From IMG/VR virus record IMGVR_UViG_3300028886_000137, positions 1 through 48,939 of that record: a stretch of 48,939 nucleotides of DNA; one strand, given 5' to 3'. The notes beneath the pieces were generated by a model. That model was not told the origin of the DNA and searched no databases. It was given only the letters and a program-made list of their open reading frames with translations. Made by a program: the position numbers and the translations under genes. Below are positions 1 through 48,939 of the stretch, piece by piece (position 1 is the first letter of the stretch; each line of letters begins with the position of its first letter). This DNA comes from a virus.

Positions 1-96
1 ATTAATTAAATTTTCCATATAAAATCCTCCTTTTCTTAAATAATATGTAAAAGAAGATTTATATATTATTAAAAAATGTCCTTAAACAATTGGTTT

Positions 97-1200
97 TTAT
101 AGTATAATTCTGTTTTTAAATAAAAATAAAAAAATATCTTTAGTTTTATCAATAGGGGAATCTTTATAACCAAGTAAATCCCATTTATCCCACATAAAAG
201 ATATTAAAGTATCATTTTTATATTTTTTATAAATATTAACTAATTTCTTTTCCCACAATTTACTTTCATCTGTATTAAGTGTTTGAAACTGTTTATCAAA
301 TGCAATTATTATTTCTTCAACATTATCATTTAATAATAATTGCATTTGATTTGTTGAAAGATTTGAACCACAGACCGCAACACTTAAATTATTATCCCAT
401 CCAAAATATGAAGCATATTTTAAACAAGATTTTTCACTTTCAAAAATAATTGCTTTTTTCATATAATTAATATTATCTTTACTCCAGTTTAAACCATATA
501 AATTTAATCCAAGAGGATGATTATATAATTTATGATTTATTTGTATGGGTCTATATTTACCATAAATTTCAGCTTCTTCTTTAATAAGTGTGCGACCGCG
601 CAGTCCAATAAATCTTCCATTCTGGTCATAATGAGGAATTGTTATTTGGTCTTTACCAGGATAAAATCCAATATGAGCTTTATTAATAACTTCTTGAGAA
701 ATATTTTCTTTTAACCAAGGTTCAAGTTTTACTGAATAATTAAAAATATCTAAAATATTTAAATTATATTCTGGTAAAATTTGTAAATTGCGTTTTTCAT
801 TTATTTCTTTTAATTTATCATAATTTGCGAAAATTTTCCAATCGGGTAATGCATCTACATCGTCTCCGTCTATAGATTCACCAGCAATCCCAAATCTGCG
901 GGCAATCCAACGGACCGCCGCGTTTAAATCATATTCTTCTTTCCATTGAATTTTCGCAATTTTACGAACTAATTCAAAAATATCAAAACTACCACTACAT
1001 CCTGTATAACAAGTAAACATTGTACTATTAATATAATAGTACAGTTTTCTACTTCCTTCTCCTGGAGGGTTATGACAAATGGTGGCGGAAATTATTCCAA
1101 AATTTGTATATTCTGGATCTCCGCCCCATTCTTGCAACAAGACAAAAATGTCTTCTAATGTTAAAGCTTCTTTAATTTTTGTCTTGTTATAGTCAATCAT
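97..1200 (-). CDS. DNA primase (DnaG-like: CHC2 zinc finger + TOPRIM)
   Basis: Uninterrupted 367-aa ORF. Cys/His cluster ICHNPPGEGS...CYTGC near the N-terminus and a TOPRIM-like AIIFESEKS...AVCGSNLS segment. Confidence 0.75.
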   Translation of the reverse strand: MIDYNKTKIKEALTLEDIFVLLQEWGGDPEYTNFGIISATICHNPPGEGSRKLYYYINSTMFTCYTGCSGSFDIFELVRKIAKIQWKEEYDLNAAVRWIARRFGIAGESIDGDDVDALPDWKIFANYDKLKEINEKRNLQILPEYNLNILDIFNYSVKLEPWLKENISQEVINKAHIGFYPGKDQITIPHYDQNGRFIGLRGRTLIKEEAEIYGKYRPIQINHKLYNHPLGLNLYGLNWSKDNINYMKKAIIFESEKSCLKYASYFGWDNNLSVAVCGSNLSTNQMQLLLNDNVEEIIIAFDKQFQTLNTDESKLWEKKLVNIYKKYKNDTLISFMWDKWDLLGYKDSPIDKTKDIFLFLFKNRIIL

Positions 1201-1202
1201 TT

Positions 1203-1532
1203 TTATCCCTCAATTACTCTAATGCAGTATCCAAGAAGTCCGCATTCTTCATTGATATAATCACACAAATATTTCTGCGGATCAATCTTTTCATCAGCTT
1301 TATTTCTGTTATTTAAAATATCAAGAATAGCTTCTTTTGGTAGCTTATATTCAACAAAATCCTTCCCAAGGAATGGATCTTTTGGATAATAAAACTTTGC
1401 AGTTTGTTCATTAGCAAATTTAGTATTTTGCTTTTTAATAAAGTTCTTCTTTTGTCTCTTTTCAGTATTCTTTTTTACACTATTTTTAACAAAATTCTTT
1501 TTAATCTCCACCATGAAAGGCTCCTTCTTCAA
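1203..1532 (-). CDS. hypothetical basic protein
   Basis: 109-aa ORF with a K-rich N-terminus, immediately downstream of helicase exon 2. Confidence 0.4.
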   Translation of the reverse strand: MKKEPFMVEIKKNFVKNSVKKNTEKRQKKNFIKKQNTKFANEQTAKFYYPKDPFLGKDFVEYKLPKEAILDILNNRNKADEKIDPQKYLCDYINEECGLLGYCIRVIEG

Positions 1533-4049
1533 CCATTATTTTTGTATTATTAATTTCAATCATTTCATATTCATATGTTGTTGCAAACATTGGTTGAATT
1601 CTGCAACAACCTAAATCTGCTTTACACCACAAAATAACACTTTTATATCTACCTCGTCTATTTTTATAGACAGAAAGTTTTATATTTGGTTGTGCAAAAA
1701 TATTAGAACTTAAAATAGGTTCTAATGATTTTATATCATCTGATGAAACTGGAAGTAAAATACTTCCAAAATCAATTTTATCAGCGATAGCTTTTGCACC
1801 TCTAAGAAGATTTTGGTCAGGAATTTTTGCTTCTTTCCATTCTCCATTTAGCTGTGTTGAAGAAAAAATAAAAATTCCATATTGGTTACATATATCTTTT
1901 AATTTCGTTGATAACATAAAAAGAATATTATCTTCACGAAGTTTTACTCCACCAGAACGACGAGTAATTTCTTCAAGAATTTTTAGACTTGTGTGAATAT
2001 AATCATGACACGTTAATCTTATGTTTCCATAAGCGCTGACTAGCTCTTACTGCGATAATCGCAGGACACCTTTTCGAATTGTGTATCAATAACAATTCTA
2101 CTCTCCTGTCCATAAGACTAAGGAGATAGTCGATACAGGTTCTTTTTAGACATTTTTCCAAGTTCTTTTTGTAATAATATCTGCTATAGTTGATTTTGAA
2201 ATATGGTATTTTTCTGCTAATTTTGTATAAGATAATTTATTTTTTTCTTTATCTTCTCTTATTTTTTTTACAATTTCAGCATTTAATTTTGTATGTCTAC
2301 CTTTTTCAAAAACTTCAGGCATTATTAATCCATATCTTTTTCCAGTCCATATATTTAAAAAAGAATTGTAATGCAATCTTTCTTTATATTTTTGATTATA
2401 AATCTCACTAGGACTTTTTTTATTTTGATATGCTTTTCTTAATTCAATAACTTCTTCTTCTGTTAATTTTGCTTGTCCCCAAATTTCTTTTTTTCTATGT
2501 TCTAATGTCTTAGGTTTTTTACAATTTTTTCCACCTGCTTCAACATTATAACCATATGGTACTTGAGTGTTATAATTTTGAATAAGAAAAATTTCCAATT
2601 TATTAAGAATTTCTACATCTTCAATATTTTTTACTAAAACTTTATATTCAAAATTTTCAAATCCATATTTTCTAAATGCTTTATGAATTAATGAATTATA
2701 TTCATTATGATTTGGGTTCTAATAATTACTTTTATGAGCATTATATCGTTCTTGAGGATTAATGGTCTATCCAATATACATTTTACCATTAATTTTATTA
2801 ATATAAGTATAAATAATCCCCATAATAAACTCCTTTCATATTTTTCTTCTTTTTTATATGAAAGAAGTCAGAAGTTATTTGACTATTTTCGTCCAAAAAG
2901 TTTCCCACGGGATTCCCTTGCATTATTGTTTAGGGTTCCCCGTTAGCCTATTATAAATAATAGACCCCGCTGATAAACGGAAAAGTGTTTCACTGTCCCA
3001 ACACCCATATTAGGGTTGAACACATATTTAATATCTTTTTCACGAACATTCTTTTTTATTCTGTCTTCAACATCTTTTAATGAAAAATCTGGTAATTCTT
3101 CAATATAAATAGGACTTTCTTTTAAAATTTTAGCTGCTTCAAAAATACGGTCTTCTTCATCACCTTCATATTTACCATTAATAATATGTTCCTCATTTAC
3201 ATTAGCAAGAAATGCAAGCATCATAGTTTGAATTTCTTCAATTTCTTGCTCTGTTGTAATATAAAGAACTGGCTCTGAAACACCATTTTTAATCCAACCA
3301 AAAGTATCATCATAAATTTTATTGCAACCAATATAACAGGCATCCGCAATCATTGAGCGTGTTTTACCAACACCTGTGGGCGCTGACCGCAAATAAAATT
3401 TTTTTAATCTTGCTCCACGAGTAACAGTATTAATTAATGTTCCATATAAAGGGACTCCTACTTCTGGATGTTCTTTAAATTTATTAATTAATTCATCAAT
3501 ACCATTACCTGCGGAAACTGCATCTCCAAAAGCATCATCAACATATTGTAATCTAATATTACTAATTTTAGTATCAACTAAATTTGCAATATCATCAAGA
3601 GAAGCATTATCTAACCATTCTTCTTGTTTTTGTTTTAATTTTGTATCTAAAATATTGTCAGGGTCATAAATATCTGTTACATTAATTCCATAATTATCAT
3701 AAGCTCTTAATAAAGAAAATTTTTTTAATCTACTATAATAATAATCAAAAGATAGTAAATTGCAATTATCAATAATTTTTAGAATCCATTCATTTCCTTT
3801 ATTTTGCTTATAAATAGCTTCATATTTTGGGCGATCTGATAAAAAATCTGAAATATTCTCGATTGTAATTTTAGTTGCACCTAATTCATGAATCTTATAA
3901 ATTGCTCCAAAAACTATTCTATGAAATTGATTTTCAAAATCTTGGTCTGTAATTATATATTTATCTGTTAAATCTAAAAGTTTCGGATTCATATAGATTG
4001 CGCCAATTACTTGTACTATAGCAGTATTATCAACATACTTAGAACTCAT
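1501..4049 (-). CDS. dnaB: replicative DNA helicase (DnaB family), interrupted by a group I intron; exon1 ~3001..4049, exon2 ~1501..2035
   Basis: N-terminal ORF carries Walker A (APTGVGKT). It runs into an intron-encoded stop. The downstream ORF (...IFIFSSTQLNG...) resembles the DnaB C-terminal region. Phase-2 exon1 plus 1 nt of exon2 restores the frame at the proposed junctions. Confidence 0.7.
2036..3000 (-). mobile_element. group I intron (IA-like core) carrying a GIY-YIG homing endonuclease gene
   Basis: Conserved blocks (..gaaacacttttccgt.., ..gctaacggggaacc...caatcccgtgggaaa..) resemble the T4 td-type intron core. 5' and 3' terminal ~100 nt are near-identical to the second intron at 7692..8646 (shared ...taagaNNtagtcag 3' end). 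Confidence 0.6.
2146..2823 (-). CDS. GIY-YIG homing endonuclease (intron-encoded), 2 in-frame TAG
   Basis: N-terminal GIIYTYINKINGKMYIG(TAG)T motif. C-terminal ORF 2146..2598 with ...PYGYNVEAGG and an HTH-like tail. Confidence 0.75.
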
Positions 4050-48616: not shown

Positions 48617-48622
48617 CAAAAG

Positions 48623-48696
48623 AGTGGTTGACGGGGAACGATCCCGCAATCCTGACTTTGGCAAAGTCAAATGTTAACCAATTACACTACAACCAC
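48623..48696 (-). tRNA. tRNA-Gly (GCC)
   Basis: Anticodon arm TGACT-TTGCCAA-AGTCA. Acceptor GTGGTTG/CAACCAC. Unusual T-loop ATCGTTC. Confidence 0.6.
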
Positions 48697-48703
48697 ATAA
48701 AAG

Positions 48704-48776
48704 AGCCCCCCATGGGATTCGAACCCACAACCTAGTGCTTACAAGGCACTTGCGCTACCTATTGCGCCAAGAGGGC
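48704..48776 (-). tRNA. tRNA-Thr (UGU)
   Basis: GCCCTCT-TG-GCGC-AATAGGTA-GCGC-A-AGTGC-CTTGTAA-GCACT-AGGTT-GTGGG-TTCGAAT-CCCAT-GGGGGGC-T. Confidence 0.7.
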
Positions 48777-48939
48777 ATATATAAAAAGGCTGGTTTTTCA
48801 AATTTCCACTTAGCAACAGCGTTATACGAACTAGCTTCCTCAAAAAAGCACCTCAGTCTGTCGTTGCACCTTTTATATTAAAAAATTCTAAAAGTATTTT
48901 TTATTTTGATTTTCGGAGCACATGACCCCGAGCGGCGCG

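Follow-up and report, generated by a model that had tools for sequence, protein, structure and literature searches.

In-frame TAG codons, predicted to encode glutamine, and a long suppressor tRNA(CUA) with a second hairpin in an uncultured phage

Results

The DNA analysed (the window, 48,939 nucleotides) derives from a contig of 99.6 kb and has a GC content of 30%. With TAG read as sense, 53 ORFs were defined, which by construction lack internal TAA and TGA. Nineteen of them host 50 in-frame TAGs; a preliminary description of the same DNA had counted about 20 such genes. Coordinates are followed by the strand. The lysis cassette lies between the PhoH and gyrB genes, and includes a 797-aa multidomain lysin (20341..22734, minus; Pfam domains Amidase_2, SH3, Phage_lysozyme2, ELLD and SH3) with 9 TAGs, at least 9 having been predicted, a 133-aa membrane protein (19937..20338, minus; 2 TAGs), which has no Pfam match, is conserved in relatives and is holin-like by position, and a CHAP and SH3 endolysin (18970..19965, minus) with one TAG within the CHAP domain. 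The neighbouring gene encodes a PIN and PhoH ATPase (22782..24041, minus) carrying two TAGs within the PhoH domain, both covered by the alignment to PDB 3b85. A 145-aa hypothetical protein (24357..24794, minus; 2 TAGs) has homologous ORFs in two related contigs (L004 and L009).

Some of the highest TAG densities occur in homing endonucleases. A GIY-YIG ORF located between gyrB and rnhA (16112..16825, minus) has 8 TAGs in 237 codons. A 336-aa ORF with a C-terminal GIY-YIG domain (9489..10499, minus) has 5, and ends with a TGA set inside an ATGA overlap; a GIY-YIG and HTH ORF found between two dnaB fragments (2146..2823, minus) has 2, both in the catalytic domain. All three had been named as TAG-bearing. 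An HNH endonuclease ORF (46569..47063, minus; Pfam HNH_3/HNH) carries 3 TAGs as well; it resides in the tRNA cluster, and the intronic position ascribed to it earlier is only putative. The AAA_24 (Sak4-like) ATPase (4685..5680, minus) has one TAG, which is codon 38 and follows Walker A directly, as claimed; the Pfam match (E=3.6e-35) spans it. Two TAGs are found in a 185-aa methyltransferase-like ORF (42866..43423, minus), recognized by an NPPF motif and an Eco57I match below the Pfam cut-off. The counts in the PhoH, CHAP, holin-like and methylase-like genes bear out that these are TAG genes, as previously listed. A 487-aa tail-fibre-like ORF without Pfam match (36257..37720, plus) contains the 6 TAGs predicted; the last is the penultimate codon, followed by one codon and TAA, and could be a real stop. 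Single TAGs occur in three ORFs upstream of it (116, 172 and 433 aa; 33703..35891, plus), and in ORFs of 90 aa (33288..33560, minus; at codon 5), 112 aa (43569..43907, minus), 134 aa (8645..9049, minus) and 89 aa (10559..10828, minus).

TAG is absent from replication, RNA-repair, Band_7 and MVP/DUF2828 genes. No TAG is found in the block encoding NAD-dependent DNA ligase, GyrA and RNase H (11160..16085, minus), in the larger dnaB fragment (2943-4049), in a block of two Band_7 genes, metallophosphatases, an AAA_33/KTI12-like kinase, an RNA ligase and others (25010..33281, minus), in which several genes favour CAG for Gln, and in the pair formed by an MVP-shoulder/vault-repeat protein and a DUF2828/DUF7788 protein (38241..42271, minus), in which the Gln codon is almost only CAG. 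The gyrB gene is TAG-free from its likely start (16910..18829, minus), in keeping with the 641-aa gene call in the relative L004; one TAG is found upstream of this start in the longer ORF, which extends to 18949. The TAG-free core of the preliminary description is largely upheld, although the names 'primase' (97-1200) and smaller 'dnaB exon' (1501-1917) find no Pfam match. The probability that no TAG occurs among the 72 Gln codons of the replication genes is 1.5e-4; for the TAG-free genes as a whole, with 251 Gln codons, it falls to 4e-14. About half of the Gln-coding capacity of the phage avoids TAG completely.

Pfam envelopes enclose 18 of the 50 TAGs, in the three GIY-YIG, AAA_24/Sak4, CHAP, Amidase_2, Phage_lysozyme2, ELLD, SH3 and PhoH domains. 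The ORFs end with TAA (45 of 53) or TGA (8), ATGA overlaps join five ORF pairs, and none needs TAG as a terminator. When greedy non-overlapping ORFs are considered, coding density rises from 75.2% under code 11 to 90.2% with TAG as sense, the number of ORFs being 61 either way, and ORFs of at least 300 aa increase from 10 to 17. Density is 78.8% with TGA as sense, and 88.8% with TAA as sense, though at lower strand coherence. In-frame TAGs are confirmed as real and far beyond chance. Domain continuity, stop usage and density gain support the notion, already put forward, that across the window TAG is a sense codon and TAA and TGA are terminators.

The residue specified was sought in homologues of the lysin (<62% identity, NCBI- and JGI-sourced proteins among them). 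Three of the nine TAG columns, at residues 44, 430 and 490, are strongly conserved, and correspond to Q in 82/82, 85/115 and 88/115 homologues, and to S in 0/82, 2/115 and 5/115, respectively. They mark one residue, and neither C-termini nor gene fissions. Codon pairs were collected by comparison with three related contigs, the lysins of which are 69-87% identical. Window TAGs face TAG 17 times, CAA 30, CAG once and all other codons 17; a Gln codon is thus found in 31 of 48 differing pairs, and a Ser codon once, though the counts are not independent, as the same positions are reused against the three relatives. TAGs per gene in the relatives are 0 in gyrB, 4-11 in the lysin and 5-7 in PhoH. 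In a public protein collection the lysin gene is already translated with Q at the TAGs (P0001). Judged from these alignments and exchanges, TAG encodes glutamine and not serine, which an earlier aside had offered as an option.

A suppressor tRNA(CUA) gene, absent from the preliminary description, is located at 47734..47825 (minus). It was found by ARAGORN, is 92 nt long, and matches the Rfam tRNA family at 47736-47824 (54.5 bits); the anticodon is at 47789-47791. The body is tRNA-Gln-like, with a U1.U72 mismatch, marked as non-canonical in the Rfam match, G2-C71, G10 and G73. The MFE fold has five arms. In the D arm a 4-bp stem carries an 8-nt loop, and between the CUA and T arms lies a second hairpin with a 3-bp stem (47767..47779, minus; ACC-CUCUGAA-GGU), the loop of which is identical to the anticodon loop of tRNA-Gln(CUG). 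Of 65 unique long tRNA(CUA) genes assembled from phages, most possess the arm, its stem covarying and its loop conserved as Y-U-YUG-A; the design is shared by many tRNA(CUA) genes of IMG/VR phages. In long phage tRNA(UCA) genes, the body of which is tRNA-Trp-like, the tRNA-Trp loop CUCCAAA occupies the same place.

Discussion

The window is, with a probability of about 0.9, part of an uncultured tailed phage of approximately 100 kb that uses code 15, in which TAG specifies Gln, a suppressor tRNA is encoded and expression of TAG genes is delayed. The host, judged from the lysin, is probably a gut Clostridia bacterium. Translation of TAG-free genes would start immediately on entry of the DNA into a host with the standard code. 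The tRNA(CUA) of the phage would accumulate, be charged with Gln by a host enzyme, either GlnRS or GluRS plus GatCAB, and outcompete RF1. Full-length products of TAG-containing genes would be made only at this stage, and lysis, virion and endonuclease proteins thereby delayed. Both the timing and the competition with RF1 are inferred. TAGs concentrate in the lysis cassette, tail-fibre-like genes, homing endonucleases, PhoH and the methylase-like gene. Yet, genes with and without TAG are intermixed on one strand, so that an early/late split is not a simple block structure, and genes not obviously late, such as the Sak4-like, PhoH and methylase-like ones, contain TAGs.

TAG may alternatively have a dual meaning, and act mainly as a leaky or conditional stop, truncated products being usual for many ORFs and some TAGs being gene ends. 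Competition between the suppressor tRNA and host RF1 is to be expected, a single codon separates the final TAG of the tail-fibre-like ORF from TAA, and several small ORFs with a single TAG have no homology evidence downstream of it. T follows TAG in 4 of 50 cases, against 21% for all codons, which may reflect selection on read-through context, the rules of which are known from E. coli. However, catalytic domains run on across TAGs, and truncated products would be inactive for this reason; the 17 TAG positions common to relatives are followed by sequence conserved at 69-87% identity, and termination at TAG is dispensable for all ORFs. Such a dual meaning is therefore unlikely.

Decoding of TAG as serine, leucine or tyrosine by a class II-like tRNA is very improbable. 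The length and the long variable region of tRNA(CUA) do look class II-like. Its anticodon stem-loop, apart from the anticodon, equals that of the tRNA-Ser(UGA) of the window (48125-48213), the stem being GCGGU/ACCGU in both; the two tRNAs also have the T loop in common, and true class II tRNA(CUA) genes exist in other phage contigs (e.g. L010, L040 and L044). Yet, the D arm, U1.U72 and G73 fit tRNA-Gln and not class II tRNAs, and the extra arm, a 3-bp stem closed by a Gln anticodon loop, is not of the Ser or Leu type. Together with the Q columns and the CAA/CAG exchange, these features largely refute such decoding.

It is also highly doubtful that the host itself reads TAG as sense, the phage matching the host code with no code switch. 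Endolysins similar to the lysin come from phages of Faecalibacterium, Acutalibacter, Blautia and Oscillospiraceae, hosts taken as standard-code bacteria. The phage has its own tRNA(CUA), and the extensive avoidance of TAG at Gln positions would be unexpected were TAG an ordinary host codon. Code-25 phages of Absconditabacteria do match the host code, but Borges et al. found TAG to Gln recoding only in phages differing in code from the host (10.1101/2021.08.26.457843). Pseudogene decay or assembly and sequencing errors, suggested by nothing beyond the presence of stop codons, have a negligible probability and are refuted, because TAG alone is affected, never TAA or TGA, domains are intact, and independent assemblies of other samples retain the TAG positions and the sequences downstream.

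Recoding of TAG to Gln is already described for gut phages, and the window phage adds one more case. The second hairpin displaying a Gln anticodon loop is, in contrast, an unexpected feature, and no description of Gln- or Trp-type hairpins in phage tRNA(CUA) and tRNA(UCA) was found in the literature searched. Comparative data suggest that the loop may supply the anticodon-type identity signal lost when the decoding anticodon became CUA. Speaking against this, an arm in the variable region would probably extend away from a class I synthetase on that tRNA, which makes a contribution to GlnRS identity less easy to explain.

In gut phages TAG to Gln recoding is biased to lysis and late genes (10.1101/2021.08.26.457843; PMC7886860) and metaproteomics has confirmed it (PMC9523058); of 29 phage tRNA(CUA) assayed in E. 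coli extract, 28 inserted Gln (PMC12636597). Like the code-15 gut phages compared, which are crAss-like groups, Lak and the Firmicutes-infecting clades of Borges et al. (10.1101/2021.08.26.457843; PMC7886860), the window has in-frame TAGs in conserved genes, Gln at homologous positions, a phage-encoded tRNA(CUA), low GC, many self-splicing or homing elements, and TAG-free genes compatible with the standard code beside TAG-rich lysis and virion genes. It differs in that the two gene classes are intermingled, not grouped in two blocks, that homing endonucleases rank with the genes richest in TAG, and that no release factor or aminoacyl-tRNA synthetase gene of a 'code-change module' is found among the larger, Pfam-scanned ORFs of the window.

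No nucleotide-level relatives of the window were found among GenBank phages, and GyrA shares no more than about 40% identity with any sequence there. phAss-1 (proposed Phassvirus, NCBI 'Caudoviricetes code 15 clade'; OQ749652.1) is likewise a human gut phage with TAG to Gln recoding (PMC10607447), and its host is predicted to be among the Clostridia. phAss-1 encodes the one tRNA in GenBank phages that is related to the window tRNA(CUA) (82% identity over 72 nt); this tRNA too has a second arm (CCC-UCUGAA-GGG). The Sup-CTA genes of phAss-1 are labelled tRNA-SUP-CTA of Gln isotype, and the accessible parts of the report do not mention the extra arm (PMC10607447). Outside the tRNA DNA similarity is undetectable, and, unlike the window, phAss-1 has three Sup-CTA genes, a short one of 72 nt residing beside a long one.

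E. coli supE (glnV44), tRNA-Gln(CUA), is an amber suppressor built on a tRNA-Gln body, which competes with RF1 at UAG and inserts Gln there. It is a class I tRNA of ordinary type, 75 nt long and with one anticodon arm, and the loss of G36 makes it a poorer substrate for GlnRS. The window tRNA(CUA) shares with supE the tRNA-Gln body, the CUA anticodon, the weak 1:72 pair, G2-C71, G73 and G10, all acceptor-end features of supE save the first two, and differs in having a 1:72 mismatch, C3-G70 for G3-C70, and the added hairpin displaying CUG.

The extra arm of class II tRNAs is tolerated by the ribosome, and is an identity element for some synthetases; its length and orientation matter, not its loop sequence. 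As in class II tRNAs (Ser, Leu, bacterial Tyr, Sec) and allo-tRNAs (PMC5389517), the extra arm of the window tRNA(CUA) is placed between the anticodon and T arms. Unlike in class II tRNAs, the body of the long phage tRNAs is Gln-like in the CUA set and Trp-like in the UCA set, and the arm has a conserved loop identical to the anticodon loop of the cognate sense tRNA.

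TAG is a sense codon in the window

Defining ORFs as running from ATG to TAA or TGA, with TAG as a sense codon, the window contains 53 ORFs, 19 of which hold 50 in-frame TAG codons. The ORFs end at TAA in 45 cases and at TGA in 8, and five of the TGA stops overlap the next start codon as ATGA. Eighteen of the 50 TAG codons fall inside Pfam envelopes. Matches crossing TAG codons were found to GIY-YIG in three ORFs, to AAA_24 in the Sak4-like ORF (E=3.6e-35), to CHAP in the endolysin, to PhoH in the PIN/PhoH ORF, and to Amidase_2, Phage_lysozyme2, ELLD (E=4.7e-56) and SH3 in the 797-aa multidomain lysin (20341-22734, minus strand). 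Annotation by the standard code breaks the 19 genes, the whole lysis cassette included, and table 15 is required.

Coding density was measured on greedy sets of non-overlapping ORFs. Under code 11, coverage is 75.2% with 61 ORFs, 10 of which reach at least 300 aa; with TAG as sense it is 90.2%, again with 61 ORFs, 17 of at least 300 aa. Reading TGA as sense gives 78.8% (67 ORFs, 10 of at least 300 aa), and reading TAA as sense 88.8% (66 ORFs, 13 of at least 300 aa). The latter gain reflects the trivial lengthening of ORFs in AT-rich sequence, and is accompanied by a drop in strand coherence. The passage from 75% to 90% once TAG is sense agrees with the genome-wide read-through proposed in the preliminary description, whose gene-by-gene list of TAG codons is essentially correct by ORF and Pfam checks, save for a few corrections. 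The affected genes, put at about 20, are 19. The gene gyrB is free of TAG, as claimed, from its likely start, and a longer ORF includes one upstream TAG. No Pfam match was obtained for the regions called primase (97-1200) and smaller dnaB exon (1501-1917). Finally, the TAG codons of the tail fibre had all been taken as sense; the tail-fibre-like ORF ends with TAG-TCN-TAA (37712-37720, plus strand), and its last TAG, the penultimate codon, could be a real stop at that single site.

TAG encodes glutamine

The amino acid inserted at TAG was tested directly, because the 92-nt tRNA(CUA) of the window first hinted at a class II, Ser-type suppressor. In phages using a code unlike that of the host, TAG to Gln is the sole TAG reassignment reported (10.1101/2021.08.26.457843). 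Gln at phage TAG codons has been detected in peptides (PMC9523058), and 28 of 29 phage tRNA(CUA) assayed in E. coli extract inserted Gln (PMC12636597).

A deep alignment of 120 proteins was built by MAFFT for a single protein family, the lysin. The first five of these, P0001-P0005, were left out, as the gene caller of the collection had already put Q at TAG; DNA-level codon comparisons and homologues from NCBI and JGI were therefore used. Of the nine TAG columns in the lysin, three show strong conservation, each of them as Gln, in homologues less than 62% identical. Residue 44 is Q in all 82 sequences aligned there; at residue 430, 85 of 115 sequences carry Q and 26 carry K; and at residue 490, within the motif AGDQTGKE, 88 of 115 carry Q, 22 T and 5 S. 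Homologues sourced from NCBI and from JGI both carry Q at these residues. The remaining six columns are either variable, or Gly within an SH3 motif. The alignment of PhoH to PDB 3b85 covers both TAG codons of the gene, at columns which are not conserved, and is therefore uninformative on the amino acid.

Six genes were compared at the codon level with three related contigs; window positions are reused among comparisons, so that counts are not independent. Wherever either side carries TAG, the partner codon is TAG in 17 cases, CAA in 30, CAG in one, and other in 17, chiefly Glu and Lys, Ser only once. Exchanges between TAG and CAA or CAG thus make up 31 of the 48 differing pairs. Since CAA and TAG differ at two positions, a mutational-neighbour effect is excluded, and TAG and CAA act as synonyms among relatives. 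Ser, put forward in the preliminary description and hinted at by the length of the tRNA and a Ser-like anticodon stem, is rejected, since homologue columns and codon exchanges both give Gln.

TAG codons are unevenly distributed among genes

TAG accounts for 50 of the 433 Gln codons of the window. Twelve reside in the lysis cassette, nine in the plus-strand tail-fibre-like block, 18 in four homing-endonuclease-type ORFs, which rank among the most heavily recoded genes, and two each in PhoH and the methylase-like ORF. The larger dnaB fragment, ligA, gyrA, gyrB, rnhA, the RNA ligase and the MVP-like/DUF2828 pair are all devoid of TAG, as had been stated in the preliminary description; the same holds for the whole block of RNA ligase, metallophosphatase and kinase genes, and for two Band_7 genes. 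Under uniform use, the 72 Gln codons of the replication genes would all avoid TAG with a probability of 1.5e-4, and the 251 present in the TAG-free genes taken together with a probability of 4e-14. The pattern is the same in relatives, where gyrB has no TAG, the lysin 4-11, and PhoH 5-7.

According to a published model, genes expressed on entry conform to the standard code, and translation of the recoded lysis and virion genes has to wait until the suppressor is active (10.1101/2021.08.26.457843; PMC7886860). The distribution of TAG in the window would fit such an early/late model, with timing presumed from the sequence. TAG codons are also found in the Sak4-like, PhoH and methylase-like genes, alongside the TAG-rich lysis and tail-fibre-like genes, and genes with TAG are intermingled with TAG-free genes on one strand. 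T follows TAG in only 4 of 50 cases, versus 21% over all codons, which hints weakly at selection for read-through context.

The choice of Gln codons is trimodal across genes (Fisher p=5e-13). TAG-bearing genes (e.g. 20341-22734) use CAA and TAG, and hardly any CAG. In replication genes (e.g. 11160-15579) Gln is nearly always CAA, with no TAG. CAG is nearly exclusive, at low GC3, in the TAG-free MVP-like, Band_7, RNA ligase and DUF2828 genes and in ORF 5802-6761 (CAG-type genes at 38241-40661, 25010-26938, 29927-31165, 40736-42271 and 5802-6761). As an example, the MVP-like gene has 30 CAG and no CAA. Overall base composition fails to account for the three classes, and Band_7 genes are CAG-biased for Gln although their AAA/GAA preference is normal. 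One idea is that a TAG could be purged in a single step only by changing to CAG.

Two TAG-free regions deserve mention on their own. The minus-strand cluster at 26961-31165 combines an RNA ligase (PHA02142 OB fold plus RNA_ligase), an AAA_33/KTI12-like kinase and two or three metallophosphatases, all free of TAG, and looks like the tRNA/RNA repair modules that phages deploy against anticodon nucleases. At 38241-42271, on the same strand, a protein bearing the shoulder and repeat domains of major vault protein adjoins a DUF2828/DUF7788 protein; codon use in this TAG-free pair is atypical, being rich in AAG and CAG.

The suppressor tRNA has a tRNA-Gln-like body

The tRNA(CUA) gene at 47734-47825 (minus strand), detected by both ARAGORN and Rfam (54.5 bits), is one of at least 11 clustered tRNA genes. 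The D arm has a 4-bp stem and an 8-nt loop, and the anticodon arm a regular 5-bp stem closing the loop CUCUAAA. Positions 1 and 72 form a U1.U72 mismatch, flagged as non-canonical by Infernal; the tRNA further carries G2-C71, C3-G70, U8, G10 and the discriminator G73.

On the acceptor side, E. coli GlnRS recognizes a 1:72 pair that is weak or open, as well as G2-C71, G10 and G73; the identity set also includes G3-C70 and, in the anticodon loop, U35, G36 and A37. The window tRNA has the weak 1:72, G73, G2-C71 and G10. It departs from tRNA-Gln at 3:70, being C3-G70, and in the decoding arm, which reads C34-U35-A36; G36 is gone because a CUA anticodon is necessarily without it. The complete C-U-G-A set is found only in the loop of a second arm. 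The long extra arm would suit a class II tRNA of the Ser, Leu or Tyr type, but the D arm, with 4 bp and an 8-nt loop, resembles that of class I; this reading is also opposed by the Gln-like acceptor end, and by TAG columns which are Q, not S, L or Y. Judging from these elements, the body of tRNA(CUA) is tRNA-Gln-like, a further argument for Gln as the residue inserted at TAG.

Other members of the tRNA set on the minus strand are unusual. In a 92-nt call as tRNA-Leu(UAA) (44096-44187) no clean anticodon arm is seen. For a 116-nt Rfam tRNA match (46292-46407, 36.9 bits), the sole ARAGORN call is Lys(UUU) containing a 34-nt 'intron', and an 87-nt tRNA-Lys(UUU) (44542-44628) has an extra hairpin, AAGC-AAAUUA-GCUU, which is not anticodon-like.

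A second anticodon-like arm recurs in phage suppressor tRNAs

The 18-nt 'variable region' of tRNA(CUA) folds into the hairpin ACC-CUCUGAA-GGU (47767-47779, minus strand), followed by GCAUGU. CUCUGAA is the anticodon loop of tRNA-Gln(CUG). A first scan of IMG/VR with the exact anticodon arm of the window tRNA returned 51 contigs, about half of which have the two-arm architecture, and about 20 an ordinary short tRNA(CUA). A second scan, which used only a CUA loop, a long spacer and a T loop, returned at least 65 unique long tRNA(CUA) genes. Among the matches listed, about 50 of 65 have a tRNA-Gln-like body plus an extra hairpin, the loop of which keeps Y-U-(C/U)UG-A-N while the stem varies (ACC/GGU, UCC/GGA, GCC/GGC, GCCU/GGGC, ACGG/CCGU, GGGG/CCCC); roughly 10 others are genuine class II tRNAs, whose loops are unrelated. 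When the best hairpin with a 7-nt loop was chosen blind to loop sequence, positions 3-5 of the loop read CUG in 38 of the 65 matches listed, and UUG in 7. The loci concerned, besides the window, are L012, L015, L019, L021, L030, L061-L170 and L386 (1492-1579).

Covariation supports the hairpin. Across 40 distinct 17-nt segments positioned by the triplet, taken among the matches listed, 82.5% of cells are paired, versus 49.6% in shuffles, and the covariation score is 0.749 versus 0.214, a value reached by none of 500 shuffles, with slid controls at or below 0.2; anchoring takes the best-paired occurrence of the motif, and slightly biases these figures toward pairing.

An analogous arm is carried by opal suppressors. 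A scan of the same kind for long tRNA(UCA) in IMG/VR (loci L171-L274) returned 28 unique genes with tRNA-Trp-like ends (A1-U72, G73). All 28 have an extra hairpin in the same place, usually of 5 bp, the loop of which contains UCCAA and is most often CUCCAAA, the anticodon loop of tRNA-Trp. Pairing is 85% versus 47% in shuffles, and the covariation score 0.922 versus 0.205, reached by 0 of 500 shuffles. YUG-type motifs occur in 57 of the 65 CUA variable regions among the matches listed versus 1 of 28 UCA, CCA-type motifs in 28 of 28 UCA versus 2 of 65 CUA among the matches listed. In the control searches, sense tRNA-Gln(CUG) with a long variable region are rare (four unique genes) and have no anticodon-like loop; the six unique long ochre tRNA(UUA) all have class II bodies, and none carries a mimic loop. 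The gain in coding density is larger with TAG than with TGA as sense in 40 of 57 contigs hosting two-arm tRNA(CUA), and the reverse is true in 5; among UCA contigs, the gain is larger with TGA as sense in 11 of 22, and with TAG as sense in 6.

The stop-reading arm is placed one nucleotide after the D arm, as expected of an anticodon arm. The sense-loop arm is separated from the T arm by 4-6 nt, a spacing which is likewise that of an anticodon arm. These molecules can therefore be described as tRNAs with two tandem anticodon-type arms. In some of them, such as that of contig L082, removing the first arm by eye leaves a canonical-looking tRNA-Gln(CUG).

The tRNA(CUA) of two IMG/VR contigs (L036 and L048) have a G1-C72/A73 end and a 6-bp second arm with the loop CUUUGAC, thus a UUG triplet, and were missed by ARAGORN. 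A standard tRNA finder can therefore overlook two-arm suppressors, which may contribute to the apparent lack of suppressor tRNAs in recoded phages.

Proposed role of the second arm

Both GlnRS and TrpRS belong to the class I synthetases and rely on the anticodon as a dominant identity element. An extra arm in the variable region would probably point away from a class I enzyme that binds this tRNA, a point against recognition through such an arm. To our knowledge, the reassignments seen in phages are exactly TAG to Gln and TGA to Trp. The simplest reading of the sequences is that the second arm may preserve an anticodon-dependent recognition that a stop anticodon would lose. The first arm, located after the D arm, bears the anticodon reading the stop codon, CUA in the window and UCA in other phages, and the second, before the T arm, displays the cognate sense loop, CU-CUG/UUG-A for Gln and CU-CCA-AA for Trp. 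In the model proposed, the second arm would be an anticodon mimic that keeps recognition by GlnRS or TrpRS, or some other anticodon-dependent step, after the decoding anticodon has changed. This might occur by a swap of the arm stacked on the D stem or, alternatively, by tethering of the synthetase. That the second of two tandem arms serves as a mimic for GlnRS and TrpRS is a tentative proposal, to which we assign a probability of about 0.4.

If true, the model would answer the question raised by Borges et al. of how suppressor tRNAs of recoded phages are charged without phage synthetases, and would provide a sequence rule to predict the amino acid inserted by a suppressor tRNA. If the arm keeps CUA and UCA suppressors specific for Gln and Trp, respectively, there would be a mechanistic reason for the two reassignments found in phages. 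The two-arm design may also explain why some suppressor tRNAs go undetected, two full-length examples having been overlooked by ARAGORN, and would represent a natural design for engineered suppressor tRNAs still accepted by host synthetases. The second arm is undescribed in the literature searched on phage recoding and phage suppressor tRNAs, a search of limited coverage which leaves novelty unproven.

The phage, its relatives and the probable host

The window is 48.9 kb long with a GC content of 30%, and most ORFs reside on the minus strand, a single plus-strand block being located at 33.7-37.7 kb. Neither half has megablast matches among GenBank phages. A lysin gene with 99% identity is carried by a 99.6-kb ENA metagenome contig, and likewise by two Logan contigs. 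The window takes up part of contig k141_2394733, which extends for about another 50 kb, and the phage is present in samples ENA ERZ27256887 and SRR9008756/57; remoter relatives, with 69-87% lysin identity, are represented by short contigs from other samples. The lysin domains resemble those of endolysins from phages of Faecalibacterium, Acutalibacter, Blautia and Oscillospiraceae, and because of this similarity the host is probably a gut Clostridia bacterium. The top GyrA matches among GenBank phages are only about 40% identical, and therefore support no particular placement. The phage represents a divergent lineage, probably infecting Clostridia, remote from deposited phages.

The dnaB gene looks split (1501-4049, minus strand). 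ORF 2943-4049 has a match to the N-terminal domain of DnaB, and its match to DnaB_C is confined to the first half; ORF 1501-1917 may be the remainder of DnaB_C by the look of its sequence. The two parts are separated by a TAG-bearing GIY-YIG ORF (2146-2823), which gives the region an intron-like appearance. Rfam reported tRNAs only, and no group I intron, at the gathering threshold in the window. In a relative with about 80% lysin identity (loci L004 1058-3609 and 10954-12232; also L005 and L006), a 321-aa LAGLIDADG ORF interrupts PhoH, a second LAGLIDADG ORF lies after or within gyrA, and a GIY-YIG ORF precedes gyrB. Endonuclease insertions thus vary among close relatives.

Comparison with known code-15 phages

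The following defining features of code-15 phages, which can be tested on sequence, are present in the window. In-frame TAG codons occur in conserved genes, and the ORFs are continuous only if TAG is sense. TAG positions correspond to Gln in homologues, as seen by deep alignment in one protein family. TAA and TGA terminate translation and TAG is unneeded as a stop, one penultimate TAG being ambiguous. A suppressor tRNA(CUA), frequent though not universal in such phages, is encoded as well. The same recoding is found in crAss-like phages, Lak phages and several clades infecting Firmicutes. The only relative of the window tRNA(CUA) among GenBank phages is found in phAss-1, a human gut phage reading TAG as Gln and a member of the 'Caudoviricetes code 15 clade' in the NCBI taxonomy; it has the same second arm, and is annotated just as tRNA-Sup-CTA. 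The recoding itself is an already known phenomenon, and the window adds a further lineage to the code-15 phages.
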